From the IMG/VR virus record IMGVR_UViG_3300028888_000006, positions 34,614 to 98,613 of that record: DNA of 64,000 bases. One strand, given 5' to 3'. This DNA is from a virus (taxonomy: Duplodnaviria > Caudoviricetes). The position numbers and the translations under genes were made by a program. Positions 24,457 through 39,783 of the stretch are shown in pieces; the first letter of the stretch is position 1; each line of letters opens with the position of its first letter. The notes beneath the pieces are model-generated. The model was not told where the DNA came from. It searched no databases and worked only from the letters and a program-made list of their open reading frames with translations.

Positions 24457-24861
24457 TCACTGAAGGAGTCCCCCGTCTGCCCCGTCAAATTCTTCCACGA
24501 CATATTCTATATCTCTGTCCTGAATGAACAAATACTCTACATCATTGATTACGATGAGAGGAATCTCGTAAGTGATACTAAGATTGTCTGACTGTATATT
24601 TTCAGCCTCATCTATTGCTCCGGGAATATGTTTCGCCTTTGCGTAACGGGAGAAGTTAATCTTTACTACATCCCCTTCCTTGATATCTCGGACTGTCCCG
24701 CCGACAGCGTATACCCTTTGGAACGGATTCATCGAACCGTCAAGCTTTCGCGTATCAATGATAAGACTTCCCTTGGAGGCATACTGTTCACCTTTGTATC
24801 GAACTGCCGTAGTGATGACGCCCGTAAACAGAGGGCGAACTTTTTTAATGTTGAATGACAT
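24457..24861 (-). CDS. GroES-like co-chaperonin
   Basis: KVRPLF...VYAVG.TVRDIKEGDVV...YLFIQDRDI pattern. Confidence 0.7.
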   Translation of the reverse strand: MSFNIKKVRPLFTGVITTAVRYKGEQYASKGSLIIDTRKLDGSMNPFQRVYAVGGTVRDIKEGDVVKINFSRYAKAKHIPGAIDEAENIQSDNLSITYEIPLIVINDVEYLFIQDRDIEYVVEEFDGADGGLLQ

Positions 24862-24986
24862 AGTTAAATTTTTAATAAAGTGCCGGTGCGGAACAAATAA
24901 GTACTACATGTATGGAACCCTATCGTGATTTCTGAACCGACGACCGCTTCGGTAATTCACATCAGCGTTTTTCCGGCACTATGGTT

Positions 24987-25448
24987 TTACTTTTTTGGAA
25001 TGACCTGTCGGGCTGATTTCTTTCCATCCTGCCCGACAAGCCAGACTCTTTCATACATTTCATTTCCTCGTTTCTTCTCGAGAGGAGGAGGAGTCTCACC
25101 GGAGAGAATCGCAGCAGCCGTGGATTCGATGTCACTCTGTGTCCTTCTGCTCCGGTAAGAACTCCTGGGAGCCATTTCGATTTGCTGCGACTCGTTGGCT
25201 CTCCACTTGAGATAGTTACTGTAAACCGGTCCAATCCTTCCAATGAATGGAATGTGCCTCACCTTGACATATTCTTCGAACTTGTCCTTCGAGAATATCT
25301 TCCTCGGATTATCGAAGGGAAGAGACCTCGCATCGGCAAAAACAACCTCAAAAAAGGATGCGAGGATTCTCTTCACTTCTTCCTCAGATACATCATGGCG
25401 TGAGGATATCTTCCTGTATCTCTCGTATTCCTTACGGTTCCTACCCAT
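24987..25448 (-). CDS. Basic HU/IHF-like protein
   Basis: YRKISSRHDVSEEEVKRIL..FF; HIPFIGRI. Confidence 0.45.
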   Translation of the reverse strand: MGRNRKEYERYRKISSRHDVSEEEVKRILASFFEVVFADARSLPFDNPRKIFSKDKFEEYVKVRHIPFIGRIGPVYSNYLKWRANESQQIEMAPRSSYRSRRTQSDIESTAAAILSGETPPPLEKKRGNEMYERVWLVGQDGKKSARQVIPKK

Positions 25449-25836
25449 TGTTTATGGGATTGGACTTGGACGACCAGTCAAAAACGATGCACAACATGAA
25501 CCTCGGGTCTTCCGTCATGTGCGGGATATAAACGCTGTTAATATGCCCGTCGACCAGAAATTCGGAAGAACGCAGTTTTCCGAGAATCATCTGGAAATGA
25601 GCCTGAGACATACCAAGCGATTCGCGCATGTCCTTTCTCGAGTTCTGCGACCAAAGCACTTCGCGAAGAACTTCCGGATCCGGAATGCTTTCCTTCAGCT
25701 TGAAATACTGGATTAGTATCCGAGCCGCAACATCCTTCTCCCGTGAAGACAGTTTCAGCGATGGAAAGAACTCAAGAAGCGCACGAAAGAACGAGGTTTC
25801 TGTGCATTTCTGCGCTATGAAGTTATTCGGCTTCAT
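25441..25836 (-). CDS. Putative winged-helix DNA-binding protein
   Basis: LSSREKDVAA...MRESLGMSQAHFQMILGKLR. Confidence 0.5.
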   Translation of the reverse strand: MKPNNFIAQKCTETSFFRALLEFFPSLKLSSREKDVAARILIQYFKLKESIPDPEVLREVLWSQNSRKDMRESLGMSQAHFQMILGKLRSSEFLVDGHINSVYIPHMTEDPRFMLCIVFDWSSKSNPINNG

Positions 25837-26134
25837 CGGGTTTCTCCTCGGATTGCGCCTGGTTCATCGCCTTGTCAAAGGAATACAGAGCGTCTTCGAT
25901 GTGCTTGCTGGTCCACTCGACGAACTTGTCGTTGTACATCTCGGGATGCTCCATCACCTTGAACAACATGCTCAAGAAGAACGAAGTGTAATCGAAATCG
26001 CGATTGTTCAGTGCCTCCATCGCCTTCTGATATTCAGCGACGAGCTTCTGATACTGGAGATGCAGTTCGCCGAATCTCTTGGCGAGTTCATCATAGGACA
26101 ATTTAGGCTGTCCGGGTTTTTTCTTTTCTTCCAT
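25823..26134 (-). CDS. Hypothetical coiled-coil protein
   Basis: KLSYDEL...LFKV pattern. Confidence 0.6.
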   Translation of the reverse strand: MEEKKKPGQPKLSYDELAKRFGELHLQYQKLVAEYQKAMEALNNRDFDYTSFFLSMLFKVMEHPEMYNDKFVEWTSKHIEDALYSFDKAMNQAQSEEKPDEAE

Positions 26135-26158
26135 AGTCTTACTCTTTAGAATGATATG

Positions 26159-26557
26159 TTATTTTCTTTTCTTAAGTCTTCGTTTCAGTTTCATGGCTCC
26201 ACTTCCTCTGGAGAGGGCCCAGTCAAACCATCGTTCGAATTCTTCATCTGGAACGGATTTGTAGTCGAAGAGACCGAAGACACGAAGATACGAGATCCCA
26301 ATCCTGCCCGCCATTCTGTACAAAACCGTTCCATATCTTCTGAATTCATCTTCCGGATCTCCAATTCGTCTGGTAAAATCGAAGCCGAATCCGTGAATTC
26401 TTTCTTCTCGTTGTCCGAGACGGTTGAGGCGCAGAAAGGCTTGGCGTCCGATGGAAGCGTGGTAGTCATTTCTAAATCGGCAATATGCTTCATCTGCATC
26501 CAGGCATCGAATTCGTCCGTAGAAGATTTGTCCATCTCGCCTTACAATTTGTTCCAT
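26159..26557 (-). CDS. Hypothetical protein (alternative-frame ORF 26191..26535 also plausible)
   Basis: Two overlapping same-strand ORFs. Confidence 0.45.
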   Translation of the reverse strand: MEQIVRRDGQIFYGRIRCLDADEAYCRFRNDYHASIGRQAFLRLNRLGQREERIHGFGFDFTRRIGDPEDEFRRYGTVLYRMAGRIGISYLRVFGLFDYKSVPDEEFERWFDWALSRGSGAMKLKRRLKKRK

Positions 26558-26757
26558 TCAATCTCCTTCCGCTTCTTTTCCCTTCGTTCCTCCTCGGCGA
26601 GCCACTCGTCCATCGTGCATATACCAATGTTCGTGGAACGGCATTTACCGCAGTAGGAGCCGTCCCATCCCTCAAATGCGAGCGAGTCGTCGACAACGAT
26701 GCAAAGGGAGTGGCAGCTCCTACAGTAATAAACAAGTCCTTCGTCGAGCTCCTGCAT
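26542..26757 (-). CDS. Zinc-ribbon protein
   Basis: YCRSCHSL...YCGKCRST. Confidence 0.7.
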   Translation of the reverse strand: MQELDEGLVYYCRSCHSLCIVVDDSLAFEGWDGSYCGKCRSTNIGICTMDEWLAEEERREKKRKEIEWNKL

Positions 26758-26759
26758 TT

Positions 26760-26903
26760 CTATTCCTCATCAAAGTATGACAACAGGTATGTGCCGTCAG
26801 GAGATGCGAATATGCTGACGATGTTCTCCTTTTTTATGCCGTGATCATTCACGAATTGATTGATTGTCCGCATATCGTTTGCGGCGAAAGTGAACATTTT
26901 CAT
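26760..26903 (-). CDS. Small conserved protein (MKMFTFAANDMRTINQFVN...)
   Basis: Hand-translated 47 aa, directly downstream of a promoter. Confidence 0.6.
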   Translation of the reverse strand: MKMFTFAANDMRTINQFVNDHGIKKENIVSIFASPDGTYLLSYFDEE

Positions 26904-26995: not shown

Positions 26996-27021
26996 AAAAA
27001 GGAGGACCGTTAAGTCCTCCT
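26996..27021 (-). terminator. Intrinsic terminator ending the 27-30 kb operon
   Basis: aggaggac/gtcctcct stem plus U tract on the minus strand. Confidence 0.8.
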
Positions 27022-27023
27022 GA

Positions 27024-27413
27024 TCATCTGCATCCGAGTTCGCAAATCACTTCCGCCAGTGCTTTTGCCGTATCTCCGGAGATATACGCTGGTCGCTCCG
27101 AATCCAACGGCACCCCGAGAGACTTCGCTATTGCATCCGCGAGATGCCTGACTTCGTGGACGAACGTCGATTGGAACTCCTCCCCTGAAGTGGTAGGGCC
27201 TATCAGGATAACCGCCCTTCTCCTTTCCTGATTGGTATAGGTGAAGCCACAGTTGTACTCGCAGGAAAGCATCAGGTCTTCCGCCTGTTCCATGATGCTG
27301 TTCGGAGCATAGGCATCGTACAAGCAGGCAAGGACGCCCTCGATATCATAGCGCTTTGTACAGAACAGGAAATCTACTGTCCAACGCCCAATCCCAATGA
27401 CACGGTGAATCAT
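27024..27413 (-). CDS. HExxH zinc-metallopeptidase-like protein
   Basis: FVHEVRHL...SERPAY. Confidence 0.6.
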   Translation of the reverse strand: MIHRVIGIGRWTVDFLFCTKRYDIEGVLACLYDAYAPNSIMEQAEDLMLSCEYNCGFTYTNQERRRAVILIGPTTSGEEFQSTFVHEVRHLADAIAKSLGVPLDSERPAYISGDTAKALAEVICELGCR

Positions 27414-27416
27414 CTT

Positions 27417-27818
27417 TTAGATCATATCTGACCAGACAATCGGAACGCCCTTGGCATTGCAGTCGGCGATAAACCTGTCGAAAGCAATTCCGGGATAGCC
27501 GTCACGATCGTCCAGCAGGTCCTTAACGTATATTGCGGCACGGGCTTCATCCGGGATGGAACTGCCCAAAAAGTCGGAGATGCACATATTGAAGACATAG
27601 ACTACGTCGTATCCGTTGTCGTTCTCCACGTTGACTCCGTGGACCCGCATAGCTGTCTCGACCTGTTCCTTGGCCCGCATCTTGACTTTGTTCCCGCTCA
27701 TATCTCGCATCTTGCTCACCGCCCATTCACACATCTTCTTGGAGAAATGATGGCCATATATGCTCAGGTACGCAGAGTATCCGTCAGGAAGCAAATCGTA
27801 ATAATCCATTCTTTCCAT
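27417..27818 (-). CDS. Conserved hypothetical protein
   Basis: YGHHFSKKMCEWAVSKM...YDVVYVFNM..SD...DDRDG. Confidence 0.7.
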   Translation of the reverse strand: MERMDYYDLLPDGYSAYLSIYGHHFSKKMCEWAVSKMRDMSGNKVKMRAKEQVETAMRVHGVNVENDNGYDVVYVFNMCISDFLGSSIPDEARAAIYVKDLLDDRDGYPGIAFDRFIADCNAKGVPIVWSDMI

Positions 27819-27859
27819 AGTAAGAACAATTAAGGGGCGAGTTTCCCCGCCCCGGTTGA

Positions 27860-28093
27860 TTAACGCATCCGACGCATGGAACCACGCTCTCGCATGCCGT
27901 CCTGTTCGTCGTATTCTTCGCGGCGAGACATTCCGCCACGCTCTGAGTACTCGTCCTCCATCTCCTCCGTGAGTTCACAGATGGTCTCGAAGGCTTTCAT
28001 CGCAGCTTTCAGGTGCTTCTTGCCCTCTTTCAGGGCGTCCTTGTAATCGTAGTAATCGTCGCCACCACGCTTAAGGATTCTAACATATCCCAT
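27860..28093 (-). CDS. Small charged protein
   Basis: E/R/G/M-rich tail. Confidence 0.65.
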   Translation of the reverse strand: MGYVRILKRGGDDYYDYKDALKEGKKHLKAAMKAFETICELTEEMEDEYSERGGMSRREEYDEQDGMRERGSMRRMR

Positions 28094-28096
28094 TTC

Positions 28097-28588
28097 TTAT
28101 TCCTCCTTTGGTTTGGTTCCAAGGATTGCGGAGAGCATCTGCCTCATCTCCACCACCTCGTTTCGAAGCGCGAACAGCTCCCTCGCCTGTTCCGCCTCCT
28201 TCTTCAGCTCCGGATTCAATTCCATCGACAGATGTTCGTAATCGGAATACAGTTTCTGTTTCACCGACACTTGATCCAAGTCCTGCTTCAATGCGGATTT
28301 TGCGGCATCAACCTCACGGATGACAGCGTTCTTATCCGTAGAGATGAACAGTCCTCGGTCCGGAAAATTGGCGACAACCCCATTAGCAGGAAGACCAGCG
28401 AAAGAAAGTGTTTCATCACCTATCTGAACTGAAAGGTCAGTGACAGGCCCATTCATTAGTGCCATCGGCTGCTGCGGGTTGTAAGTTGGCATGTGCGTAT
28501 TCACGGAGACGATGCGTCCATCCGCAACACGCGGAGTGTTCTTGAAGAGAATGGAGACAATGCTCCCCTGTGTCAATCCTTGAAACAT
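28097..28588 (-). CDS. Conserved hypothetical protein
   Basis: MFQGLTQG start; LNPE plus coiled coil. Confidence 0.7.
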   Translation of the reverse strand: MFQGLTQGSIVSILFKNTPRVADGRIVSVNTHMPTYNPQQPMALMNGPVTDLSVQIGDETLSFAGLPANGVVANFPDRGLFISTDKNAVIREVDAAKSALKQDLDQVSVKQKLYSDYEHLSMELNPELKKEAEQARELFALRNEVVEMRQMLSAILGTKPKEE

Positions 28589-28613
28589 AATTTCGATAAT
28601 TAATTGTTAATCT

Positions 28614-28958
28614 TTACGCCGTAGGAGCAAGAGGCGAGACAAGCTGGAAAATCCCGTTAAACCAGTCGTACCAGACTTCGATGACGCCGGCGCCGACCAG
28701 ATCAGCGGCAGTCACATTCGTACCACCGAAGAAAGTCAGGTTGCGCGTATTGCCATTGAGGGTAAAACGGATGGGAAGAGTTCCAGTAGTCCCTTCCGGA
28801 ATCGCGGATGCAATCCGGATAACCACCTCGCCCACCTTTGGAATCCTGCGGAATCCGAGTGCGAAGTCAACGGACTCCTCGCCTACCGTAATCCCGTTTG
28901 TGAAGAGATAGGGGACGCCGCTGACATTCGTCGTTACATTGACATTCATTCCAAACAT
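28614..28958 (-). CDS. Small beta-rich protein
   Basis: IPEGTTGTLPI...NVTAADLVGAGV. Confidence 0.7.
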   Translation of the reverse strand: MFGMNVNVTTNVSGVPYLFTNGITVGEESVDFALGFRRIPKVGEVVIRIASAIPEGTTGTLPIRFTLNGNTRNLTFFGGTNVTAADLVGAGVIEVWYDWFNGIFQLVSPLAPTA

Positions 28959-28970
28959 GGCTACAAGGAT

Positions 28971-29930
28971 TTAGAAGTAGAGACCATTACCAGGGAAGCC
29001 ACCGATACCAGGAGCACCATAGTAACCATTGAATCCACCCTGATAGTAACCGCCGCTCACATACGGGGTCACATTCACGGCCTGAAGATTGGGCCATTGG
29101 ACGGTAGCGGTACTAGGCTGCTTGCACTTAATGTCGTCAACCTCCTTTGCGAGAGAAGCGAGAGCAGCATTAACGGGAGCGATCGCGCTTCCGAGAACTC
29201 CTGTAGTGAAGTTCTGCGACTCCAGCTGAGCAACCTTCGCGGTAAGAGCAGTAATCTCGCGGTCCTTGCGAGAGGACTCCAGCGCATCAATCTTGTTGTC
29301 GAGAGCCAGATAGTTCCGGTTCATCGTGTCAGTGAGCGCGTAAGTCTGCTGGCAGGAAGAAAGCTGGTCGGCGGCTGACTTGGCAGCGATGGACTGCTGA
29401 ACTCCGCTGATGCCGTTCTGAATCGCATTCGTCTGCTGGCAAATCGCAAGCTGATTGTCGCAGCAGCACTTCTGGAGAGCACTCATCAGGCTCGCGTCAC
29501 CACTCTGGATGGAATTGATGATCTGAGGAACGCTCACGGCCTGCTGAAGAGCGAGGTTGGAAAGAGAGCCCTGAATGGTCTGGATAGCACCATTCACGAG
29601 GTTGAAATCCTGGCCGAGCATCGTGGACAGGCTCTGAGTCGCAGTACGGGAAGCCTCACCCTGCGAAGTGATAGCCTGCATCAGAAGGTCACGACCATTG
29701 TCATTGTTAATCTGGTTGCTCAGGAAGCCAGCACCGGCACCACCGCCAAAACCGTTTCCGAAACCACCAAATCCGCCCCAGCCGTTTCCGAAGAGAAGGC
29801 CAAGAAAGAAGCCGAGGATGCCACCACCCCAGCCATTGCCATTACCGAACAGACCGCCATTGTTCATAGCCATCCATGCGGGCACAGTACCCCCATTGTT
29901 CTCGGGGGTGTAAACTACTGTTTCAGCCAT
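28971..29930 (-). CDS. Gly-rich, coiled-coil, CCC-motif protein of unknown function
   Basis: N-terminal GGFG repeats with hydrophobic segment, Q/N heptads, CCCD, G/Y-rich C-tail. Confidence 0.85.
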   Translation of the reverse strand: MAETVVYTPENNGGTVPAWMAMNNGGLFGNGNGWGGGILGFFLGLLFGNGWGGFGGFGNGFGGGAGAGFLSNQINNDNGRDLLMQAITSQGEASRTATQSLSTMLGQDFNLVNGAIQTIQGSLSNLALQQAVSVPQIINSIQSGDASLMSALQKCCCDNQLAICQQTNAIQNGISGVQQSIAAKSAADQLSSCQQTYALTDTMNRNYLALDNKIDALESSRKDREITALTAKVAQLESQNFTTGVLGSAIAPVNAALASLAKEVDDIKCKQPSTATVQWPNLQAVNVTPYVSGGYYQGGFNGYYGAPGIGGFPGNGLYF

Positions 29931-29984
29931 TTTGCTTTAGTTTTTTGCAGTTAATTACTTTAGTTTTTTGTTGCGCAACTACTG

Positions 29985-30017
29985 CAAAATTATCATATAG
30001 GCAGGCCGAAAAACAAT
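29985..30017 (-). promoter_or_regulatory. Promoter of the CCC operon (TAATTTTG -7 element)
   Basis: TAnnTTTG at 29985-29992; ATTG about 21 nt upstream. Confidence 0.6.
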
Positions 30018-30031
30018 GATGCTCACATACG

Positions 30032-30066
30032 AAAAATCCCCCGTAGAATCACTTCTACGAGGGATT
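30032..30066 (-). terminator. Terminator after the HTH gene
   Basis: aatcccccgtagaa/ttctacgagggatt stem plus U tract on the minus strand. Confidence 0.65.
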
Positions 30067-30069
30067 GTC

Positions 30070-30087
30070 TGAGCAACATGATGCTCA
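30070..30087. promoter_or_regulatory. Palindromic operator-like site TGAGCAACATGATGCTCA, with a half-site copy at 30016-30026
   Basis: Near-perfect 18-bp palindrome; ATGATGCTCAC repeated. Confidence 0.55.
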
Positions 30088-30381
30088 CTTTATTCCATTC
30101 TTCTTCAGCTTTCTTATTTCACGTTCGGACCATTTCAGCTCCTTGCTTCCCGCTTCCGGTTCACCTCTCGGAATCTTGCCTTCGCGAACATATCTGTCGA
30201 ATGTTGCACGGCTCATATTCAAGAACGTGTATGCTTGATACTTATTCCACTTGTTATCCTTCCTTGTATATCTTTGGAGGCATTTGATAATTTTGATTTG
30301 CTCCTCTTCACTGGCGTTGCTATTGTCGGCATCAATGTCGTCAACGATTCCAAGAAGAAGCTTCTTTATTGTTTGCAGCAT
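30085..30381 (-). CDS. HTH (AlpA/excisionase-like) DNA-binding protein
   Basis: KYQAYTFLNMSRATFDRYVREGKIPRG...W; likely start MLQTIKK. Confidence 0.75.
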   Translation of the reverse strand: MLQTIKKLLLGIVDDIDADNSNASEEEQIKIIKCLQRYTRKDNKWNKYQAYTFLNMSRATFDRYVREGKIPRGEPEAGSKELKWSEREIRKLKKNGIK

Positions 30382-30758
30382 TTCTCTTTTCGATAGAAAT
30401 ATAAAACAAGAAATAAAAACAATCCAAGAAGAATGACGTGTGTACACATTAGCGCATAATTGGATATCGGTATACCGAATTCAAAATCAATTACACTGAT
30501 CGTGTTCGTCAAAAGAACATAATGCAAAAACATTCTATGATATGCGCAAAACTGAAACACATATGAAGCGAGATATAGAAATGCAATGGTGAGTAATGAG
30601 ATGCCTCCGAAATACGATATCCAATGGCATTCAAGCCCAAGGAATCCAATTACAGTATTAGCGATATCAAGTAGGGCGAGAAGCATCGGGATTATCTTCA
30701 ACGACACCAACACCGCTTTATACAGAGCCTTTCTTCTTAACGCGCCCGCCTTTACCAT
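30366..30758 (-). CDS. Four-TM membrane protein
   Basis: Hydrophobic segments; FQFCAYHRMFLHY. Confidence 0.7.
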   Translation of the reverse strand: MVKAGALRRKALYKAVLVSLKIIPMLLALLDIANTVIGFLGLECHWISYFGGISLLTIAFLYLASYVFQFCAYHRMFLHYVLLTNTISVIDFEFGIPISNYALMCTHVILLGLFLFLVLYFYRKEKCCKQ

Positions 30759-30840
30759 ATTCCGCTTTGCTTACACCGGATTTCATGACATTTGGCTTAG
30801 GCCTTCCGCCTGGTTGTTTCTTTGGTTTCTTGTCAGCCAT
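30718..30840 (-). CDS. 40-aa basic peptide with YGKGG motif
   Basis: Hand-translated MADKKPKKQPGGRPKPNVMKSGVSKAEYGKGGRVKKKGSV; below ORF-track cutoff. Confidence 0.55.
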   Translation of the reverse strand: MADKKPKKQPGGRPKPNVMKSGVSKAEYGKGGRVKKKGSV

Positions 30841-30847
30841 GGTACAC

Positions 30848-31138
30848 TTATTTAATTACCCAGAGCGCAACCGTTCCAACGATATCGTAGGCGAGCCTAA
30901 GATACCATTTGATCTCATAATTTAAGTCACAGTCAGCAGTCTTGGTCCTACGTATCCCAAGCGCATAGGCCAGATTATGCGAAGCCCATTCATGGATGAG
31001 CGACTTCTCGGATCTTCCCCACACGGGACAAGCCGGATAGAGACTACGTATTCTACGCAATTCCGATCCGAACTTGCCCTTGGGGATTTCATGCGAACCG
31101 ACCAGCTTAAGCCGATCATGAAGAATTTTGAATGTCAT
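30848..31138 (-). CDS. Hypothetical protein
   Basis: HEWASHNLAY motif. Confidence 0.6.
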   Translation of the reverse strand: MTFKILHDRLKLVGSHEIPKGKFGSELRRIRSLYPACPVWGRSEKSLIHEWASHNLAYALGIRRTKTADCDLNYEIKWYLRLAYDIVGTVALWVIK

Positions 31139-31380
31139 TCCTCTTCCTTGTCTTTATTCTTCTTGTCGTAGATGAGATGGTAGAAGAATTGGCTCAAGGT
31201 GTAGCACAGAGCCTCAACACCGACAATTATGCAGAGAGTCATGACGACCCACTTGCCAATTTCCTCCCAGATATTCGCCTCTACAACCCTGCCGAAGCAG
31301 AGACCACAGATTAGCATGATGACGGCAACGGCTACAGCCGTCCAAAGCATGAAACGCTTGCAAAATGTCTTGATGTCCAT
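31135..31380 (-). CDS. Two-TM membrane protein
   Basis: Two hydrophobic helices, charged tail. Confidence 0.6.
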   Translation of the reverse strand: MDIKTFCKRFMLWTAVAVAVIMLICGLCFGRVVEANIWEEIGKWVVMTLCIIVGVEALCYTLSQFFYHLIYDKKNKDKEEE

Positions 31381-31401
31381 AATAGTATTGAATTATAGTT
31401 G

Positions 31402-34400
31402 TTATAATTGGTTCATCGGGATTAAATAGTCCGGGTTTGCACCTTGGGAATTCTTATAATTCCACCATGTATCAAGAGATGAAGACAATGACGACCAATT
31501 ACTATTTGATTGATATTGGGCGAGGATAGCATCATCTTCGGATTGGGAGTTTCCGGGGCCGACATAAATCTTTGTCGCATAATTTAGTCCAGTGGTTGTC
31601 GGATTGCACGAAACAACACTACTACGACCCAAATGTATGATTCTGTTAACCGTGTTTCTTGTGAAAATCTTATTTGTGCTCGTAATATCCCCTATTACTT
31701 CAAAAAACGGTGAGTGGTTTGCGCCAAGAAGACCAGTATTCGAGCCGCCGGAACAATTTCCACCGATTCTTAATTGCTCATTATCGCCACCCCAATAAGT
31801 AGCAATTGTAGAAACCCTCAAATCGCCAAGAATAACTAATTTACGATACTTGCCCCTTGCAGAACCACCACCAGAACTTCCGGTCAAATCTCCGTCGATA
31901 ATAATATCACATACGGATTCCGTCAACCCAACACCAATAAAGGTATTCATGGTAGCACCAGTATTCGTTGGCTTGATTTTTACTCTCTCAATTGGTGTTC
32001 CATAAAAAACTTCATTTCCATAAGAACAAGCGCATGAATTTTCAAAACCAAGTAGATTCGTATCCCTAAAAGCACTATTGCCGATACTTGACACATAAGA
32101 TAATGACATGCGCCCGCCCAATAACGAACAACCTTGGAAAGCACTTTGGCCGATAGTCGTGATATTCTCGTGAATGGTTACGGAGGAAATACCATTCGAA
32201 CGATAGAATGCATATTGCTTTATCTCCGTGATACTTTGAGGAATAACTACATTCGTCAACTTCGCGTTGGACAAATAAACGTCCCCGCCATTCGAATTCC
32301 CCGCAAAAGGATGGCCATTGGACGTGTTCCACGTGCAATTCAAGTATTGAACAAGGTCCGTGATGTCTATTCTTTCAAGGGCCGAGTCATTAATAAACGC
32401 ACCCGTGGATGTTGTTATCACAGACTGAATACCTATTGTGGTAAGACTGCTACAATTCGCAAATCCGTAGTTTCCAATGCTCGTCAAGGAGGCGGGAAGG
32501 GTTATTCTGAGCATGTTTGAACAATTGCCGAAACCCGCGCCCCCGGCGGTTGCTGCCGATGTTATGCTCGTTACTCCGGTGAAGTATTTGAACTCATCAA
32601 AAGAAGTAATTGATGTGTTTCCTTTGAATGCGGTTCCGGCCTGTGTGTTTGTTACAGCGGCGGCTTGTTGTAAGGTTATTATTCCATTTGCGCCCCAATT
32701 CGATACGCAGATACTCTCCGCCGCCGCATCCACGAATCGGATAGCGAGTGTGGCCGGGTCGTAGATAATATAAAGGCTTGTACCGAACAAATTGGAGAGA
32801 GCCTTCTTCAATCCCGTTCCATAGTCTTCGGTAGAGATGATATCAAGCACGTCAAGGTCGTCCGCATAGAGTTCACTAATTTGTGTAGTACCTTCCACAT
32901 CGGGCAGGCCCGCTTCGGTTCCGGGTGTGTTGTTCTCAAAGGTGACACGCCCCGCAAGCGTAGCAAGAGTTCTAATCGTGGTGGCATTACCTTGAATGAT
33001 ACCGTTCCAAATCAAGGTCGCATAGGCAAGGGTATTGCCCGTGGTTCCCAAGATACTTCCGGCGATGGCGAGCGGATTGATGCTCGCACAATTGTTTATA
33101 TAGAGATTGACGATTTTGTCAAGCGAAGGTAAGGTTAAGTGCCCATTATCCAAGAACGGGAGCGAGTGCATGAACACCGTTGTCGCGTTGTCGGGGAAAG
33201 ACACATTGTTCAACTTCGCGCCTACCGGGAGGTAGAGACCGGATGCGCCGGAGCCAGCAAAGAGGCAAGTCCGCAAACGCGGGCAACCGAGAAGGTCAAC
33301 CGTGTTGCCAATGGTCGCGGTGTTCCGCGCATCAAGGGTGACAAGGGTTGGCGAGGTGACACCGAACACCGTGGCATTGAATCCGGTCGTGGAGGTATCC
33401 CAAGGGGTTGCGTCGCCGATTTTCAAGGTTTGGAGTCTTGCCCCAGTAACGGAGAACGGAATGGAGGATGAGCCACCACGGTTGGTAAGTCTCATCAAGT
33501 GCAAGTCTCCGAGGGAGGCAAGCCAATCGCCACCGTGAATGGAGTTGTTGGACGTACCATCGGACGCGGTATAGAGACTCACGCTCGTTCCCGCAGGAGT
33601 TCTCGTACCTACCGTGTCATCATCGACGAGTGAGGTGACTGGGTATAGGTCGATAGCCGGGGTAAGTTCAAAAGTGAACGATTGTGCGAGGGTGAACACG
33701 ATTGCGTTGTAACCCGTTGCCGTCCCGTGGAAAGCACCGATATGATACTTCGAGAAGATATAGGCGATTCGCCGATACATCCATAACTTCTCGCCTTGGT
33801 ACTGGTCGCCAAGGGCCTGTGTCAGAGGAGCGACACCATTATAGAGTTCCGGGTAGGTCTCGCTCGTTCCGGGGATGGTAGTTCCGGCCAACAACCACGG
33901 TTCAATGTAAGACCAACGGCGGTCGGATTCGTAGATGGTAGCGGGGAAATACTTCGCCGAGTGGTCCCAACAATGGTATGCGGTAAGGTTGAACAAGGAC
34001 TCGTGCTCGCCACTACCAGCGATTCCGAGTGCGGTGGCAAGAGCCGTAGCCGCAGATGCGATTTGTCCCATCATCGCACGGCACTCGTCCTCGTAGTTCG
34101 TCTTAATGAGCATCCACAAGGCCGCATCGCCGCCTTGGAAGATTTGCACGCCATCGAAGGTGTCCAAGTGTTCCACGGAGTAGGATTTCGTGTTCGTACC
34201 GTTGTTGTCAGTCATCAACACGGAGTCAAGGTCATCCTGCCTCCACCCCCAACGGTTTCCAACGCCGGATGCGCTCAAGGCTTGGAACTTGAACGGGTAG
34301 GAGTTCTTCGCATAGTTATCCGTCACGCCATAGAGGAGGCAGAAGCAGTAGTGGTAAATCGTCTGGTTCACGGAGAAGTAGTTTCCCATCGTCGCCTTGA

Positions 34401-37400
34401 ACCTTGCCCCTCTCGCTTGGATGAGTTGTGCAGTGGTCGGGGACGAGGTGCTATATCCGAGCGCGGAGAGATAGGCGGTCAAGTCGGTAAGAGCGTTCTT
34501 CTTGCCAGCATAGGAAGCCGGAAGTTTCTCGTACTTCCCGGTAGAACGGCGGTAGAAATAGAGGTCATAGGACGAGTCATAGAAAGCGATGAACTCGTTC
34601 TTGACAATCATATTATTTGTCTTGCCCTCCTTGACGACAGCCGCGTTCCCAACGGTCAAGAGGTCCGCGAGTGTAGTGATGCTCGGATTATTGAGGCCGT
34701 TAATGACCTCTTGGTAGGAGGCAAGGTACGGGGAGTTGTCGTAGACGCAATTGTACGCTGGCTGCCACTCCGCATTGTAAAGCGAGAGGATGTTATCCCA
34801 ATCGGTCTGCGTGCCCTTGTCACGGCTCGTTTCAAACTTCACATAGTCGCAATCCCATCCTTCCTCTCCGCCATAGGTGAGCGTTTCCTCGTCCGGGTCG
34901 TAGGCCACATCCACCCAAGGGCACAAGAACCGCGTCCCTCTCGGCGCGTGGTTCGGGCCTTCGATGGACAACAAGTTAGGGTAGGAGGACGAGTAGCCAA
35001 AGGTCTTCTTCGAGCCCTTGTCCGGGCCACAAGTGTAAACACCGATGAACTCGTATTGGTTGTTCGTGGTGTTGTATTGGAAACCGATGAACGGGAATTG
35101 ATACACCGCAACACGGTAGGACTGGTCAGGAAGTTCGGCATCGAGTCCGATTTGGTGGAACAGGTCATTGTACAATCCCGTCAAGCCCATCTTGTGACCC
35201 TGTGGCGAGGATGCGATGTTCTTCTTCGCGGTGATTCTATCAACCTCAATGTAATTGGTGTCGTTAATCATCCGACCAACCTTGCTATTAGCGGTAGTCG
35301 TTCCATCGCCGTAAGTCCAAGTCGTATTGCTCCCGGTTTTCCACCGAAGATTCCAACGGTAGTATTTCTTGGATGTCGTACCTTGACCGTCCATCGTGAG
35401 GTTGGAAACCGTTGCGTTCTTGGTTGCTTGCCCGGCATACTCAAAGCGGACGGTACACCCGGCAATCTCGACCTTGTTGAAGAAGGACGGAATGGCGGCA
35501 TTGTTTGGGGTGGTGATAACCATCGTATTGAACCCAGCCCTCTTGACGAGTTCGTAATCGACGGCCTCGCCCAAGAGGACATCGTTCTTCGCGTTCAAGT
35601 CGGAACGGTTGTAGTCAACGCCGTCAATGATGCTGTTCAAGAAGTTATTGAACACCGCGTTTGATTCAAGCGCGGAGCCGTATATCCTCATCTTGTAGAG
35701 ATATGTGTCCGTGTGTGATTGTCCGATAGTGAGGCTACCGTTTCCGAAGGAAGAAGCACCATCAAAGGCAAAGTTCACGTTGGAAATACCATTCACATAC
35801 ACCGAGCAAATGTTCTTTCCGCTTTGCCCTTCGTAACCCTTCAAGAAGGTTATGCAGATGTGCGTCATCGTGTTCTCCGAGAAGTTGACGGTTTGGTAGT
35901 CCTGGTCCCGTTCCGCGCTACCCCACACGGTAATCTTCGTGGGATAGATAAGAATACCTACCTGGGTTGCGCCACCGGATGAGAGCGACAACACAGGCTC
36001 GGAATAATCGGACGGGGAGCCACATTGTAACATGAATTCCACCGTCATACCTGGATAGGATGACATCAAACTCAATGGAGTAAGGCTCGGAATGGTAACG
36101 CCACACCCGGCTGGGACACAAAGGGCCTTGTTGCCAGACGGGTCGGTGGACCAACCGTCATTGTACCAAGAAAGACCGCTCCAATTAGCGGAGTAGGTGG
36201 CGGCGAAATTCGCAGATGCACCCGCTTCGTTTATGATGGTTTCGTGATTTTCGGTCCCGTTGTCCCTCGTCGCCGCATTGAGATAGAATAGGTAGCCCGG
36301 AGTGGCGATATAGGAATAGGTGTTGTCGAAGATAGTAGAAGCGGTCTGCGCGTTCTGCGGATGCGTTTCGTTGAAATAAGGCATGACCGCTATGGCGAGA
36401 GAGCCAATCTTCGTCTCATTCGCTCCAGTGTCCACTTCAAGGGAATAGGCAAATGGATATTGAATCCCAGTCTCGCGTTCGGTGGCCACAACGCCCGAAG
36501 CAATGACATAGTTGACGGAGTTGAGGGTTGCGGACATATCAATGGAAACCTTGTTCGCATTGTAGACCGCATAGGAGAATATCGTTCCGCTCGTAAAGTT
36601 GTATGCGCGGTCGGAGATGGCATTGATGGCGACCAAAGGAGTAGTATCCCCGCTTGCCGCACACATGATATTGTATGAGACGACGGGGGTGGAAACGCCC
36701 TGTGCACTCATCCACAACTTAATCGAGTGGACCGCGCTTCCGCCTGACGGGAATGCGCTCGCCGGGATTGTATAGAAAGTGGCGGTCGTGGTGTACGATT
36801 GGTTAGCAGAATAGGTGACGGGGGTAAGTTCGACATTATCCAACGACACGTGCAGTTGCTTGACCAAGTTGCCCGCAAAGCGGATGCCCGTAATAACGTA
36901 GTCTTGCCCTTGCGTCCACACATTTTGCCACATGTGATTGCAAGACATCGTGAGAGTCGTGAGGGTTCCCGTAAACACGGATGTCTTGGTTTGACCGGAG
37001 GACGTGCCGGTCACGGCGATACGAATGTAGTTGTCGCCCGTGGCAAGGAAAGGCTTGATATCGAATGTGGCACTTCCACCAACTGGGATAGAGCCAACCA
37101 CGCGGTCGATATAACCCGAACCGGAGTTCACGGCAACCACATAGGTGTAGGACTCAGGGAACGGCTCTTGCGTGGACGAGCCGAAGGACGACACCGTAGT
37201 GGACGGGGTAATGGTCATCATCTTCGTCGCCTCATCCGCAAGGACATAAAAAACTTGCGAGAGGTTGCTATCAACCGAGATGGTGTAGATTTGACCGCCA
37301 AGTTGGACGGAACCGAGTACCGTTCCTCCTTGCTCATCGTAGAAGGAAATCGTCATCGTTTGCGTGTTGAAATCAACGTACCCAAACTTGTCGCCCACCG

Positions 37401-37497
37401 ATGCAGCCAACGCGGTCAATTGCGACTTGATGAAAGACTCAACCTCCAAGCCGGAGTGCCCGGCCCACGCTTCTGTTAGATTTTGAATATTTGCCAT
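31402..37497 (-). CDS. 2031-aa putative receptor-binding protein: LamG-like + CotH-kinase-like + LRR
   Basis: TVEF...HICITF..YVNG..LYKMRIY; QGTTSKKY...DNYAKN...DDLDS; BspA-type repeats (LPASLTSIGNYGFANCSSL). Confidence 0.75.
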   Translation of the reverse strand: MANIQNLTEAWAGHSGLEVESFIKSQLTALAASVGDKFGYVDFNTQTMTISFYDEQGGTVLGSVQLGGQIYTISVDSNLSQVFYVLADEATKMMTITPSTTVSSFGSSTQEPFPESYTYVVAVNSGSGYIDRVVGSIPVGGSATFDIKPFLATGDNYIRIAVTGTSSGQTKTSVFTGTLTTLTMSCNHMWQNVWTQGQDYVITGIRFAGNLVKQLHVSLDNVELTPVTYSANQSYTTTATFYTIPASAFPSGGSAVHSIKLWMSAQGVSTPVVSYNIMCAASGDTTPLVAINAISDRAYNFTSGTIFSYAVYNANKVSIDMSATLNSVNYVIASGVVATERETGIQYPFAYSLEVDTGANETKIGSLAIAVMPYFNETHPQNAQTASTIFDNTYSYIATPGYLFYLNAATRDNGTENHETIINEAGASANFAATYSANWSGLSWYNDGWSTDPSGNKALCVPAGCGVTIPSLTPLSLMSSYPGMTVEFMLQCGSPSDYSEPVLSLSSGGATQVGILIYPTKITVWGSAERDQDYQTVNFSENTMTHICITFLKGYEGQSGKNICSVYVNGISNVNFAFDGASSFGNGSLTIGQSHTDTYLYKMRIYGSALESNAVFNNFLNSIIDGVDYNRSDLNAKNDVLLGEAVDYELVKRAGFNTMVITTPNNAAIPSFFNKVEIAGCTVRFEYAGQATKNATVSNLTMDGQGTTSKKYYRWNLRWKTGSNTTWTYGDGTTTANSKVGRMINDTNYIEVDRITAKKNIASSPQGHKMGLTGLYNDLFHQIGLDAELPDQSYRVAVYQFPFIGFQYNTTNNQYEFIGVYTCGPDKGSKKTFGYSSSYPNLLSIEGPNHAPRGTRFLCPWVDVAYDPDEETLTYGGEEGWDCDYVKFETSRDKGTQTDWDNILSLYNAEWQPAYNCVYDNSPYLASYQEVINGLNNPSITTLADLLTVGNAAVVKEGKTNNMIVKNEFIAFYDSSYDLYFYRRSTGKYEKLPASYAGKKNALTDLTAYLSALGYSTSSPTTAQLIQARGARFKATMGNYFSVNQTIYHYCFCLLYGVTDNYAKNSYPFKFQALSASGVGNRWGWRQDDLDSVLMTDNNGTNTKSYSVEHLDTFDGVQIFQGGDAALWMLIKTNYEDECRAMMGQIASAATALATALGIAGSGEHESLFNLTAYHCWDHSAKYFPATIYESDRRWSYIEPWLLAGTTIPGTSETYPELYNGVAPLTQALGDQYQGEKLWMYRRIAYIFSKYHIGAFHGTATGYNAIVFTLAQSFTFELTPAIDLYPVTSLVDDDTVGTRTPAGTSVSLYTASDGTSNNSIHGGDWLASLGDLHLMRLTNRGGSSSIPFSVTGARLQTLKIGDATPWDTSTTGFNATVFGVTSPTLVTLDARNTATIGNTVDLLGCPRLRTCLFAGSGASGLYLPVGAKLNNVSFPDNATTVFMHSLPFLDNGHLTLPSLDKIVNLYINNCASINPLAIAGSILGTTGNTLAYATLIWNGIIQGNATTIRTLATLAGRVTFENNTPGTEAGLPDVEGTTQISELYADDLDVLDIISTEDYGTGLKKALSNLFGTSLYIIYDPATLAIRFVDAAAESICVSNWGANGIITLQQAAAVTNTQAGTAFKGNTSITSFDEFKYFTGVTSITSAATAGGAGFGNCSNMLRITLPASLTSIGNYGFANCSSLTTIGIQSVITTSTGAFINDSALERIDITDLVQYLNCTWNTSNGHPFAGNSNGGDVYLSNAKLTNVVIPQSITEIKQYAFYRSNGISSVTIHENITTIGQSAFQGCSLLGGRMSLSYVSSIGNSAFRDTNLLGFENSCACSYGNEVFYGTPIERVKIKPTNTGATMNTFIGVGLTESVCDIIIDGDLTGSSGGGSARGKYRKLVILGDLRVSTIATYWGGDNEQLRIGGNCSGGSNTGLLGANHSPFFEVIGDITSTNKIFTRNTVNRIIHLGRSSVVSCNPTTTGLNYATKIYVGPGNSQSEDDAILAQYQSNSNWSSLSSSLDTWWNYKNSQGANPDYLIPMNQL

Positions 37498-37500
37498 ATG

Positions 37501-37692
37501 CTATCCGTTATTTTTCCAAATATCATTGTCAACCCATTTCTTGTTTGGAATCCAAATTCCTCGACCGTAACAAGAGCCGTTTTGCCACACTAACTTATCC
37601 CCGCGATATACCTCTTGAACCACCGCCCATTTTCCGTTTATAAGAAACCTATAACGGCCCAACAACGGAATCGTTCCACCCTTAAAAATCAT
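37501..37692 (-). CDS. 63-aa Trp-rich adaptor peptide (copy 2)
   Basis: SCYGRGIW...W.D.D.WK; paralog of 42057..42248. Confidence 0.7.
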   Translation of the reverse strand: MIFKGGTIPLLGRYRFLINGKWAVVQEVYRGDKLVWQNGSCYGRGIWIPNKKWVDNDIWKNNG

Positions 37693-38357
37693 ATAATATC
37701 CTCCTCGTAGACGTTGTATGTTACATTGGGGTCTTTGTAAGTCAATACCTCGAACGCTTGTTGGGTAAGCCAAACCTCCGAGTCCTTTCTCACATAGTCA
37801 TCCATGTCTATCGTAGTCGAACCAAGAGGCATCCACCCGTAACCATTTGATGTTGACGAGCAGAGGTATCTCAAATAACTTGAACCGCCATCATCACCAA
37901 CAAGAAAAATAGTATTCACATTGGACGATGATGCCGCAAGTGTCCCGGTGTATGTCTCCCCGCCGTATGTAACGACGCACACATTTGGAATACTCGCAAC
38001 ATTAGGAGTTGAAACACCGTCCCACGCGATAGAGTATTTGGGCGTAATGATGCTGGACATGCGGCTTTCAATATCCTCGACGATTTCGACAAGGTTATCA
38101 ACTTGTCCGGACGTTGTAACCATATCCTCGTTGGAGGCAGCGGCGATATTGGTCCGGGCTTGTTGCTTTTGCGCATTGGTAAGAGTTTGGCTCGCGTAGG
38201 AAACCGCATTTAATTCCAAGTCCCCTCCACCCAAAACCGACTGCCCTTCGACGGTCTTGATGTTCATACTCGAAACAAGGGTGTCTTGCTTCGCGGTAAG
38301 CAATGCCTTGAGTTTATTCCAAAAATAACTCAGGCCGTTGTAGTCCAAAACTTTCAT
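37689..38357 (-). CDS. Fibre segment
   Basis: LDYNGLSYFW start, KQDTLVS..NIKTVEGQSVLG, QTLTNAQKQQARTNI. Confidence 0.7.
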   Translation of the reverse strand: MKVLDYNGLSYFWNKLKALLTAKQDTLVSSMNIKTVEGQSVLGGGDLELNAVSYASQTLTNAQKQQARTNIAAASNEDMVTTSGQVDNLVEIVEDIESRMSSIITPKYSIAWDGVSTPNVASIPNVCVVTYGGETYTGTLAASSSNVNTIFLVGDDGGSSYLRYLCSSTSNGYGWMPLGSTTIDMDDYVRKDSEVWLTQQAFEVLTYKDPNVTYNVYEEDII

Positions 38358-38358
38358 A

Positions 38359-39783
38359 TCAATGCGTCATAAGGGTGTCTATCTCCGTGCTCGTAATAGC
38401 GGCCAAGTTATCCGCACGCACAAACTCCGGGAGAGCCACCATCCCGTCCGACGGATTGTAGGTGTCCTCGCCGACGGATACTCCAGTCACAGTGCCCAAG
38501 TTTTTCGTGAAGCCCCACCCGGCAACAGTCGCCTCATTCGGAATATTTGCGTCTGTCCATAACCGAATCCGCGTCCCGTCGTGATAGTAAATCGGATGGT
38601 CGAACATTAACGCAATGTTCGTCGCGCTATATGTTATGCCCAAGAAGATGTATATCTTCCCGTCGGCGGAGGAAGGTAGCGTCTGCACATACGGCGTATC
38701 CGCGTCAATGATAGCACTACCATCTGATTGTGGTGCGCATTTGAGGTATATTGGTGCAGGGAAAGTCAAGACCAGTGCCGCTCCGGTCCTATTGAACGAA
38801 TAGCCGAGTGATAATTCGTATTGCCGCCAAATATTAGTAGAACCGGGCTCGGCTCCGGCGGCGACAACCGTAGTTGTATAGTAGTACGCAATCTCCCCAA
38901 ACGGATTGAAAGGAGTCTGATTTACTTCACGGAGTGCTGTCGCATTAGTAGAGGTGGACGTGTTTGCTGGAATCCACTTTGTCCCGTCCATAGATGTAAA
39001 GACCATCCGATACCGATACATTTGCGCGTCCATTACCTTATTATCGGATGGAGTGCGGACATAATAAGCAATGGTATTGGTGTTCGCATCGCCGGAGTGC
39101 GTTTCTCCTTGGGTGGTCGCGTTGTAGTTGCCAATGGCCGAGTGCGTAGTACCCGCAACATAGCCGGGAATGACGGTAGAGGAAACCGTGTTGCAAGTCT
39201 CTGGCCATACGATAGTGCAGTTGTCCTCTACAAGAATCTCGACATCAAAGGTACGCCCATAACCACTTACGGTACAATCCCTCGAATATGAGGTCTCGTT
39301 GCTATAATAGTTGAAGCCGATGATATGGCCCATCGTCTTGTATGCGGTCAAGCATCGCATCAAGGAATTGTAATAGGTCGTCCGATACGAGGTGTTGCCA
39401 ATGAAGTTTTTGCAAGAATACGCCAACAAAGCCTCGTGGAAGAACGAGTACATACACTCATGTTTCGAGTAGTACAAGTCCTCATGCCCGTCCACGTAGA
39501 CGCGTAGACGATAGACAACGATGACGGGTTCATCCCAATCCGTAGGAACAACCCGGAATAACGGGAACAAGGTGTTGTAGTTCGAGGTTGTCGCAAGGAC
39601 ATTCGCGTATGTGTGTGTCTCAATCGGGGCAATCTTATCGGTCCTCAAAGACGCGAAAACACCGCCACTCGTCACAACATTCCCGCTCCCGGAAGTAGGG
39701 GTGGTGTCCACCCCCGAAATCCGCGAGTCTTTGATGTTTACCTCCGTGTTGCCCGGAAGTCTTATTTTCGATACATCCGGCAT
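38359..39783 (-). CDS. Fibre segment
   Basis: MPDVSKIRLPG start; VDTTPTSGSGNVVTSGGV; ends AITSTEID. Confidence 0.7.
   Translation of the reverse strand: MPDVSKIRLPGNTEVNIKDSRISGVDTTPTSGSGNVVTSGGVFASLRTDKIAPIETHTYANVLATTSNYNTLFPLFRVVPTDWDEPVIVVYRLRVYVDGHEDLYYSKHECMYSFFHEALLAYSCKNFIGNTSYRTTYYNSLMRCLTAYKTMGHIIGFNYYSNETSYSRDCTVSGYGRTFDVEILVEDNCTIVWPETCNTVSSTVIPGYVAGTTHSAIGNYNATTQGETHSGDANTNTIAYYVRTPSDNKVMDAQMYRYRMVFTSMDGTKWIPANTSTSTNATALREVNQTPFNPFGEIAYYYTTTVVAAGAEPGSTNIWRQYELSLGYSFNRTGAALVLTFPAPIYLKCAPQSDGSAIIDADTPYVQTLPSSADGKIYIFLGITYSATNIALMFDHPIYYHDGTRIRLWTDANIPNEATVAGWGFTKNLGTVTGVSVGEDTYNPSDGMVALPEFVRADNLAAITSTEIDTLMTH

Follow-up and report, generated by a model that had tools for sequence, protein, structure and literature searches.

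A mobile six-gene accessory cassette of crAss-like and other phages and its candidate membrane rod-and-tip products

The morons and superinfection-exclusion genes of temperate phages, such as HK97 gp15 and P22 SieA, are characterised by a promoter and terminator of their own, polymorphism of presence and absence, a position on the integrase side and a membrane-anchored product. A cassette of six genes with comparable anatomy, its membrane anchor being predicted, is described here from a 64,000-nucleotide window (the whole stretch of DNA analysed) of the IMG/VR record IMGVR_UViG_3300028888_000006, a virus record of 98,613 bp that is complete and carries direct terminal repeats. It differs from morons and exclusion genes in comprising six genes rather than one or two, and bears no sequence relation to them. 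The window phage is crAss-like. Its major capsid protein (MCP, 9228-10760) matches the Pfam family Crass_capsid at 4.5e-133, and the portal, large terminase and dUTPase genes and a row of tail-fibre genes all lie on the minus strand, with the cassette between the gene for a fibre of 2,031 amino acids (aa) and the small genes preceding the terminase. Sheep-gut metagenomes are the public runs that match the window best. A blastn search of the cassette region against a phage collection gave no match, and a literature search found no paper on the cassette, on DUF7841 (the family of its fifth protein), on the T5 gene T5.077 or on C3_41T2LP, a cultured Bacteroides phage that carries the cassette.

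Spanins, such as lambda Rz/Rz1 and T1 gp11, resemble the cassette in its predicted membrane anchor and long Cys-containing coiled coil, in a frequent location near lysis genes and in being comparable to class I fusion proteins. They differ in that the cassette has no lipoprotein partner or lipobox gene, includes five co-conserved partners without signal peptides and is accessory, being present in addition to canonical lysis genes. The last protein of the cassette resembles the minimal gluzincins and MPTase-PolyVal zincins in its HExxH motif on a long helix, in the invariant Glu that starts the next helix and in its domain of ~130 aa in which a four-stranded sheet precedes these helices, but it possesses an extra C-terminal CxxGCxxC and has no Pfam match above threshold. 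The head fibres gp21 and gp29 of crAss001 (PMC10172136) are likewise small proteins from the same general genome region, including a beta-sandwich knob. However, crAss001 has no cassette, the cassette is found with other capsid types, and the profile of its second protein does not match gp29 (hhalign probability 0.1%, a comparison of sequence profiles rather than folds).

The nearest putative relative of the lead protein (gene 1) to have been studied by experiment is T5.077 (321 aa, phrog_8119), the first member of the unit T5.077-079, which has its own promoter (P12) and terminator in the accessory tRNA region of T5 and adjoins T5.076, annotated anti-retron. Like gene 1, T5.077 combines a Gly-rich hydrophobic segment (LFGAILIGALLTGGFGGFG), helices rich in Q, N and A and an invariant Cys-Cys-Cys (CCC) motif. 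The two family profiles align with 97.7% probability (hhalign, E 1.8e-12) over 169 columns of coiled-coil-biased composition, and the direct hmmscan of gene 1 against phrog_8119 is weak (E 0.042). All three T5 genes were scored ‘Not Fit’ in CRISPRi-ART (PMC11879866, supplementary file 16), and the viable T5Mos deletion 30661-38625, its coordinates checked against the tRNA genes, takes out the promoter and 5' part of T5.077 (PMC11464382). This relative is therefore dispensable for lytic growth. The T5 unit differs from the cassette in having three genes, with neither a DUF7841 protein nor a zincin, and a T5.078 protein unlike gene 2. Its host and phage type are unrelated to those of the cassette carriers, and the dispensability is that of the T5 genes. 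T5.078 is a Q/M-rich low-complexity protein, while T5.079 (locus L072, T5 38064-39671) is a peptide of 64 aa, rich in Cys (MCC...SCC...RCC...GGCC) and with IWF at its end, resembling the Cys-Gly or aromatic tails of some gene 1 homologues.

Distribution and mobility of the cassette

Related loci, 52 in number and all from IMG/VR, were compared by tblastn and phmmer (individual loci are cited by L numbers). In about 45 of the 52 the genes form one collinear block encoding proteins of ~300, 113, 165-180, 65-110, 133 and 132 aa, a co-conservation far beyond chance. The block is present in Suoliviridae cr273_1 and Steigviridae cr116_1, in a rearranged version in Suoliviridae cr109_1, and outside Crassvirales in C3_41T2LP. 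Its neighbours vary, with a gp31-like gene and the MCP gene coming after it in some loci, the terminase gene in others and small genes in the window. The block is missing from crAss001, though this phage is syntenic with cr116_1 from portal to MCP. In Bacteroidales chromosomes it stands at the end of an integrated prophage, adjoining a convergent integrase gene and host genes. The six proteins of that prophage are 79, 65, 59, 39, 52 and 46% identical to those of the window, whereas its MCP is of the SU10_MCP family and has no similarity to the Crass_capsid MCP of the window. In a second prophage (L065) host genes are succeeded by an integrase, small genes and the block, beyond which lies a tail-fibre gene encoded by the other strand.

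Because the same block occurs in unrelated phages and prophages and is absent from crAss001, it is, on the evidence of these comparisons, a mobile accessory cassette and does not belong to the core modules for virion or lysis. The combination of its own promoter and terminator with presence in cr116_1 versus absence from crAss001 gives it a moron-like anatomy. Mobility of this kind speaks against both a structural role tied to one capsid and a core lysis set. The sequence-only reading of the window had proposed a self-contained, uncharacterised system, to be abandoned if its genes were not conserved as a block or belonged to known virion or metabolic families; since the block is co-conserved across unrelated phages and its proteins were placed in no such family, that proposal survives. 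In agreement with its further claim, none of the six genes is a recognisable capsid, tail, replication or lysis gene in Pfam, PHROG, PADLOC and NCBIfam scans, nor does any match a defence family. NCBIfam has no model matching the six proteins, and PADLOC-DB 2.0 yields no hit for them.

Variation of the block takes several forms. In cr109_1 (L002, 48398-49003) and L057 a DUF7841-like gene, annotated in cr109_1 as ‘RNA polymerase sigma factor/ubiquitin-like protein’, is found upstream of the lead gene instead of at position 5, so that more distant cassettes may depart from the usual order of genes. A shortened cassette is seen in L050 and L051, where the lead protein has 267 aa and matches just residues 1-181 of that of the window; genes 2 and 3 are missing there, while genes 4-6 and the upstream genes for a helix-turn-helix (HTH) protein and a protein with four transmembrane (TM) segments are retained. 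In L001, L034, L035 and L037 the terminase and other genes are split into several open reading frames (ORFs) under table 11, which suggests stop-codon recoding.

The proteins encoded by the cassette

Gene 1 encodes a protein with an acidic N-terminus, a Gly-zipper hydrophobic segment (GGILGFFLGLLFG), a helical domain with the CCC motif at residues 155-157, a helix of ~125 residues and a G/Y/F tail ending in F, the helices being rich in Q and N. The features ascribed to it from sequence inspection (a Gly/aromatic N-terminus, Q/N-rich helices, CCC and a G/Y-rich C-tail) are thus all found. A membrane-like segment had also been proposed. The hydrophobic stretch exists, but since its core measures just 12-15 residues, below the length of a canonical TM helix, such a helix is not assured. 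The protein matches phrog_16490 (3.9e-29), a family of unknown function, and more than 5,392 homologues were retrieved at E<=0.001, which form 482 clusters at 50% identity, all unnamed; at 90% identity the family comprises more than 5,000 clusters. Across 72 diverse homologues the CCC is near-invariant, and the Gly-flanked hydrophobic segment and the Gly/aromatic C-terminus recur.

An AlphaFold2 (AF2) model based on the alignment of these 72 sequences has helices at residues 36-46, 67-143 and 146-270, the last with a predicted local distance difference test score (pLDDT) of 85-95. The short helix covers the hydrophobic segment, and both Gly/aromatic ends are disordered. The model is compatible with a rod form and in that respect agrees with the membrane-associated, self-assembling structure that had been suggested. 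No Foldseek match was obtained at E<=0.001. Profile matches in the PDB are at noise level (E 0.007-0.04) and include HA2, together with its fusion-peptide flank, and coronavirus HR1. To this noise-level coiled-coil resemblance we attribute the labels ‘outer capsid protein/viral fiber’ and ‘spike protein/glycoprotein’ that public records attach to gene 1 homologues.

The distal end of gene 1 varies together with the genes that follow it. Homologues with the tail QPxTVxVxWPNLxAVNxTPYVSGG(Y/F)Y...F all have gene 2 behind them, whereas gene 2 does not follow those with a different tail (TITLPNN...ASYWANR, or Cys-Gly repeats). Furthermore, the closely related locus L040 shares 81-88% nucleotide identity with the window on either side of positions 29484-28150, between which there is no nucleotide similarity. 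Gene 2, most of gene 3 and the distal half of gene 1 fall within this stretch, whereas the exchange leaves the anchor end, the regulator and genes 4-6 unaffected. Gene 3, gene 2 and the distal rod thus behave as a co-adapted, exchangeable unit and, because they are exchanged together between related phages, would be the specificity-determining end of the assembly.

Gene 2, likely the tip partner of gene 1 in view of this co-occurrence, encodes a small protein rich in beta structure. Of the six genes it is the best conserved, with a mean column identity of 65%. Its product matches phrog_31654 (6.2e-13), a family of unknown function; its profile finds no relative in the PDB, and a search of the ESM Atlas gave just unnamed viral clusters. 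The gene 3 protein has a beta-rich N-terminal half and a C-terminal coiled coil, matches phrog_28898 (2e-13), also of unknown function, and has 48 homologous ORFs among the related loci. Its PDB matches are weak coiled-coil ones alone, including paramyxovirus F HRB and syntaxin. The gene 4 product begins with a conserved helical head (MG.I.I.ERGGDD..YK..LK..K), continues with a disordered acidic part and ends in an R/G/Y tail. R9, G11, K25, C39, M45, E46, R52 and R70 are invariant in an alignment of 18 homologues, and almost every locus has an ORF of 63-112 aa at the corresponding place.

Gene 5 encodes a DUF7841 protein, as seen from its match to Pfam PF25223 (5e-28; 98.1 bits against a cut-off of 25.2), which covers profile positions 7-113 of 114. 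It also matches phrog_38431 (3.1e-42), a family of unknown function, and has invariant Y17, D82, D104, D106 and W129. The PDB profile search gave no useful match, being at noise level, and the ESM Atlas search, made from a poor model, found just viral DUF7841 clusters. In gene 6 the HExxH motif, pointed out before from the sequence, is invariant together with E106. Across 32 sequences the invariant positions are H86, E87, H90, E106 and G113, with CxxGCxxC at the C-terminus. The AF2 model (pLDDT 96.2, predicted template modelling score 0.89) consists of a four-stranded sheet and helices and places HExxH and E106 on consecutive helices, from which gene 6 is predicted to be a minimal HExxH+E metallopeptidase of the zincin (gluzincin) type. 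Fold comparison yielded no clear relative: VIA-align gave a designed protein as the best match (Z 5.3), followed by anthrax lethal factor (Z 4.3) and an oligopeptidase (Z 3.8); Foldseek found nothing at E<=0.001 and the PDB profile search stayed at noise level. Pfam has no match above threshold (DUF6782 at E 0.01), and MPTase-PolyVal is not among the hits at E<=1. None of the six proteins has a signal peptide, and direct reading found no lipobox with signal peptide in the five partners or in ORFs embedded in gene 1.

Transcription and candidate regulation

The coordinates of the cassette and of its surroundings are collected in Table 1. Gaps of 12, 25, 3, 41 and 3 nt separate genes 1 to 6, and the ORFs, the promoter box and the terminator of this tightly packed unit were all located as the sequence-only reading had them. 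Among related upstream regions, 31 distinct ones have an nnnnTTTG box 40-75 nt 5' of the start codon, and a terminator divides the operon from the upstream HTH gene.

Table 1. Positions of the cassette genes, their upstream companions and putative transcription signals in the window
Feature	Position	Strand	Remarks
Basic protein with 3-4 TM segments	30366-30758	minus	130 aa; common upstream companion of the cassette
HTH-like protein	30085-30381	minus	~98 aa; ORF open from GTG 30447
Intrinsic terminator after HTH gene	30066-30035	minus	14-bp stem, then TTTTCGTATGT
Upstream promoter motif GCATCATTGTTTTTC	30008-30022	minus	-33 region or candidate operator
-7 box TAATTTTG	29992-29985	minus	Bacteroides TAnnTTTG type, read from sequence
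Perfect palindrome GTTGCGCAAC	29970-29979	minus	at expected transcription start
Gene 1	28971-29930	minus	319 aa
Gene 2	28614-28958	minus	114 aa
Gene 3	28097-28588	minus	163 aa
Gene 4	27860-28093	minus	77 aa
Internal G+C-rich hairpin, genes 4/5	27853-27834	minus	8-bp stem, 7 G-C pairs
Gene 5	27417-27818	minus	133 aa
Gene 6	27024-27413	minus	129 aa
Operon terminator	27021-27000	minus	9-bp stem, then T-run TTTTTCGTGT
Promoter-like box TATCTTTG of the following unit	~26932-26925	minus	

RNA was considered in the form of sheep-gut metatranscriptome contigs, not reads, over 20 kb around the cassette. These serve as a weak hint only, uncovered parts not being counted as silent and depth not being used to rank genes. 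A contig of 2,155 nt, identical to the window, spans 27816-29970 (genes 1-4) at a depth of 26.6, and a second one covers 27180-27824 (gene 5 and part of gene 6) at a depth of 8.5. RNA contigs of two studies terminate at 29970-29973, some 12 nt 3' of the -7 box. Beyond the operon terminator depth drops to 1-2.6, and window-identical contigs also occur in the flanks at several-fold lower depth. The contigs thus hint at a six-gene unit transcribed from near 29975 and perhaps attenuated at the internal hairpin, which may be an attenuator, the contig break there being a weak hint. The unit has a promoter of its own, a terminator at either side and RNA contigs confined to it and is thus self-contained, as had been proposed.

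Upstream of the cassette, a basic peptide, a four-TM protein and an HTH protein had been described as a further group of genes. The latter two recur, while the 40-aa basic ORF, found in just one other locus, is doubtful as a gene. The 130-aa protein has three hydrophobic 19-residue segments over threshold, with a fourth suggested by the sequence, and no Pfam or PHROG match; jackhmmer searches from two starting points place its family ~790 nt 5' of the lead gene in prophage L058 and 15 loci. For the HTH gene the probable start is ATG 30381 and not GTG 30447, because its homologues measure 91-108 aa. Its product has weak matches to HTH_17 and excisionase-type domains and a weak PADLOC match to mad1 (6.8e-5), the sole one in this region. 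In 11 loci a member of this family directly precedes the lead gene, while another, unrelated family of ~100 aa with an HTH-like NVR..INRK segment holds the same position in 15 further loci and in prophages, so that a small HTH-like gene immediately precedes the cassette in 26 loci in total.

Two sites in the promoter region accompany these genes. GCATCATTGTTTTTC occurs in exact form just once within the 64 kb and has close variants at the same place in L004, L006, L017, L019, L020, L029, L038, L040, L044, L049 and L051; the motif recurs in loci carrying the HTH family of the window. An inverted repeat with arms of >=5 nt stands <=32 nt after the -7 box in 22 of the 31 distinct upstream regions. 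Its position is kept while its sequence varies among loci (L004-L056), examples being GTTGCGCAAC, GTTAGCTAAC, GTGACGTCAC and GTTGTACAAC, and it could be an operator co-varying with its regulator or a 5' RNA hairpin. The motif linked to the HTH family and the position-conserved palindrome make regulation of the cassette by the upstream protein plausible, and the GTTGCGCAAC and GAGCATCAT sites may be targets of the HTH protein.

Several small genes around the cassette have recurrent positions. Directly after the gene of the 2,031-aa fibre come those of an 81-aa protein (31135-31380, minus strand), class II holin-like with two TM segments and a charged C-terminus, and of a basic 96-aa protein (30848-31138, minus strand); both are found again upstream of the cassette in L015, L021 and L051 and have no Pfam or PHROG match. 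On the 3' side, 24457-26903 (minus strand) holds genes for proteins of 47, 71, 132, 103, 131, 153 and 134 aa, the last of them GroES-like. This row is kept as a set in L038, L040 and L051, and in L040 it is 84-100% identical despite the replaced tip part of the cassette. Scanning of the small flanking ORFs with Pfam and PHROG recognised no holin or endolysin in that neighbourhood.

Possible role and rival explanations

The cassette probably is an accessory rod-and-tip operon, a reading in which we have reasonable though far from full confidence. From the patterns above we infer membrane insertion, oligomeric state, topology, subunit contacts and role as follows. Inside the infected or lysogenic cell the products would form a membrane-anchored rod-and-tip assembly, in which the short Gly-zipper segment of gene 1 would insert into the cytoplasmic membrane, gene 1 would oligomerise through its ~125-residue (~18 nm) helix bearing the invariant Cys triplet, and its C-terminal tail would dock the small beta protein of gene 2. 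Gene 3, with its beta domain and coiled coil, and gene 4, with its helix and disordered R/G/Y tail, would supply further subunits. The DUF7841 and zincin pair, 3 nt apart and maybe made at a lower level downstream of the hairpin, would be its catalytic part, serving maturation, for instance, or acting as an effector. The most likely role would be competition at the cell envelope, either superinfection exclusion or phage-borne defence. Such a role agrees with a moron-like anatomy, a position near the integrase, a T5 relative that can be dispensed with and the swapping of the specificity end. An accessory, mobile membrane rod-and-tip operon with such an inter-phage role is proposed tentatively, at a confidence short of even. 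The sensor function that the sequence-only reading gave to the upstream genes, its processing of the structure by the peptidase and its alternatives of a spike, condensate or coat gained no support.

A number of observations weigh against this proposal. The hydrophobic segment of gene 1 is short and Gly-rich, and its flanking charges, read by the positive-inside rule, yield no clear topology. The link to T5 is through coiled-coil sequence of biased composition in which the CCC motifs are out of register. No homology supports a role in competition, no known exclusion or defence family being matched in PADLOC, and six genes are many for superinfection exclusion. A periplasmic assembly is hard to explain because the partners have no signal peptide, and we know of no precedent among exclusion proteins for a cytoplasmic one. 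In addition, the cassette often adjoins lysis genes and lies among late genes, and the swapped-tip pattern is also typical of tail fibres.

The last two points lead to rival explanations that place the products in lysis or in the virion. As a lysis accessory, gene 1 would be spanin-like and class-I-fusion-like, an inner-membrane-anchored coiled coil spanning the periplasm whose Gly/aromatic tail disrupts or fuses the outer membrane, with the remaining genes timing or assisting that step. The ~18 nm rod is on the order of the periplasm width. In cr109_1 and cr116_1 holin, LysB-like or L,D-carboxypeptidase genes come before the cassette, in cr273_1 the endolysin comes after it, and in the window the holin-like 81-aa gene and the 4-TM gene lie upstream. 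The weak matches of gene 1 to HA2 and HR1 and of gene 3 to paramyxovirus F HRB and syntaxin point in the same direction, but these are at coiled-coil noise level, and lipobox and signal peptide are missing from the partners and from ORFs embedded in gene 1. Moreover, in cr116_1 a holin and an L,D-carboxypeptidase are present alongside the cassette, in cr109_1 a LysB-like gene as well, and crAss001 possesses all three yet lacks the cassette; in L065 the block adjoins the integrase and is oriented opposite to the late genes, and the T5 relatives are dispensable for plaque formation. A lysis accessory is unlikely, and a primary lysis cassette was rejected, given co-occurrence with canonical lysis genes and the orientation in L065. 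Were the products a virion appendage instead, gene 1 would be the stalk of a fibre, gene 2 its knob, genes 3-6 chaperones and a maturation protease, and the swapped distal unit a receptor-binding module. The public-record labels agree with this, as do the location between tail-fibre genes and terminase and the classical fibre pattern of a constant N-terminal part followed by an exchanged distal part and downstream genes. However, phages whose capsids are unrelated (Crass_capsid versus SU10_MCP), as well as integrase-adjoining prophages, carry nearly the same N-terminal parts, a Gly-zipper hydrophobic segment is odd in a fibre, T5.077-079 are not required for infectivity, and crAss001, whose virion is solved, has head fibres that are small and unrelated (PMC10172136) and no cassette. 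An appendage of this kind is quite unlikely, and a capsid-specific decoration was rejected, the same cassette occurring with an unrelated MCP.

Two further rivals place the products inside the cell. An intracellular organiser, in which the membrane rod, the disordered R/G/Y protein and the Gly/aromatic low-complexity ends would tether or scaffold a replication or assembly compartment at the membrane, has an analogy in condensate scaffolds and in phi29 p16.7, an early, non-essential protein with a TM segment, a coiled coil and a C-terminal binding domain. It would suit partners that are cytoplasmic for want of signal peptides, the G/Y/F/R low-complexity composition of genes 1 and 4 and, as a weak hint from contigs, the greater RNA depth over the block than over its flanks. 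Improbable as it is, it would leave both the swap of the tip unit between near-identical phages and the retention of the cassette beside the integrase in prophages unexplained, and the Pfam, PHROG and NCBIfam scans found no DNA-binding or replication domain. The probability of an anti-defence operon is similarly slight. Such an operon would be repressor-controlled and acr-aca-like, its zincin cleaving a host immune protein as proposed for ArdC-type and polyvalent-protein metallopeptidases, and would fit the strong promoter, the position-conserved palindrome at the transcription start, the adjacent HTH gene, the label ‘PolyVal metallopeptidase’ on the gene 6 homologue in the C3_41T2LP record and the position of T5.077-079 beside the anti-retron gene. 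Anti-defence loci vary in gene content, whereas the six genes here are a constant set that includes a structural protein with a predicted membrane anchor, and neither Pfam (no MPTase-PolyVal) nor the fold search (no ArdC-like match) relates gene 6 to these peptidases.

Returning to the accessory rod-and-tip operon, it might encode a phage machine of a kind not recognised before, in which a membrane-anchored 18-nm rod with a Cys triad would bear an exchangeable tip, docked non-covalently, and be served by its own zincin. Acting at the envelope, it could be a lipoprotein-free fusion device, or a sensor or blocker of incoming phages, and it would have spread horizontally through Crassvirales, other Bacteroidales phages and prophages, with a reduced relative in T5; we regard this as a possibility of rather low probability. 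Being mobile, with a tip exchanged as a unit and a dispensable T5 relative, the cassette should be called accessory in annotation and not ‘outer capsid protein/viral fiber’. Tractable systems exist in T5.077-079 in E. coli and in C3_41T2LP as a cultured carrier. The gene 1 family is very large and occurs in crAss-like phages, the most abundant viruses of the mammalian gut, with no member that has an assigned function. If the products do serve phage-phage competition or envelope remodelling, the cassette would bear on the persistence and mutual exclusion of crAss-like phages in the gut.

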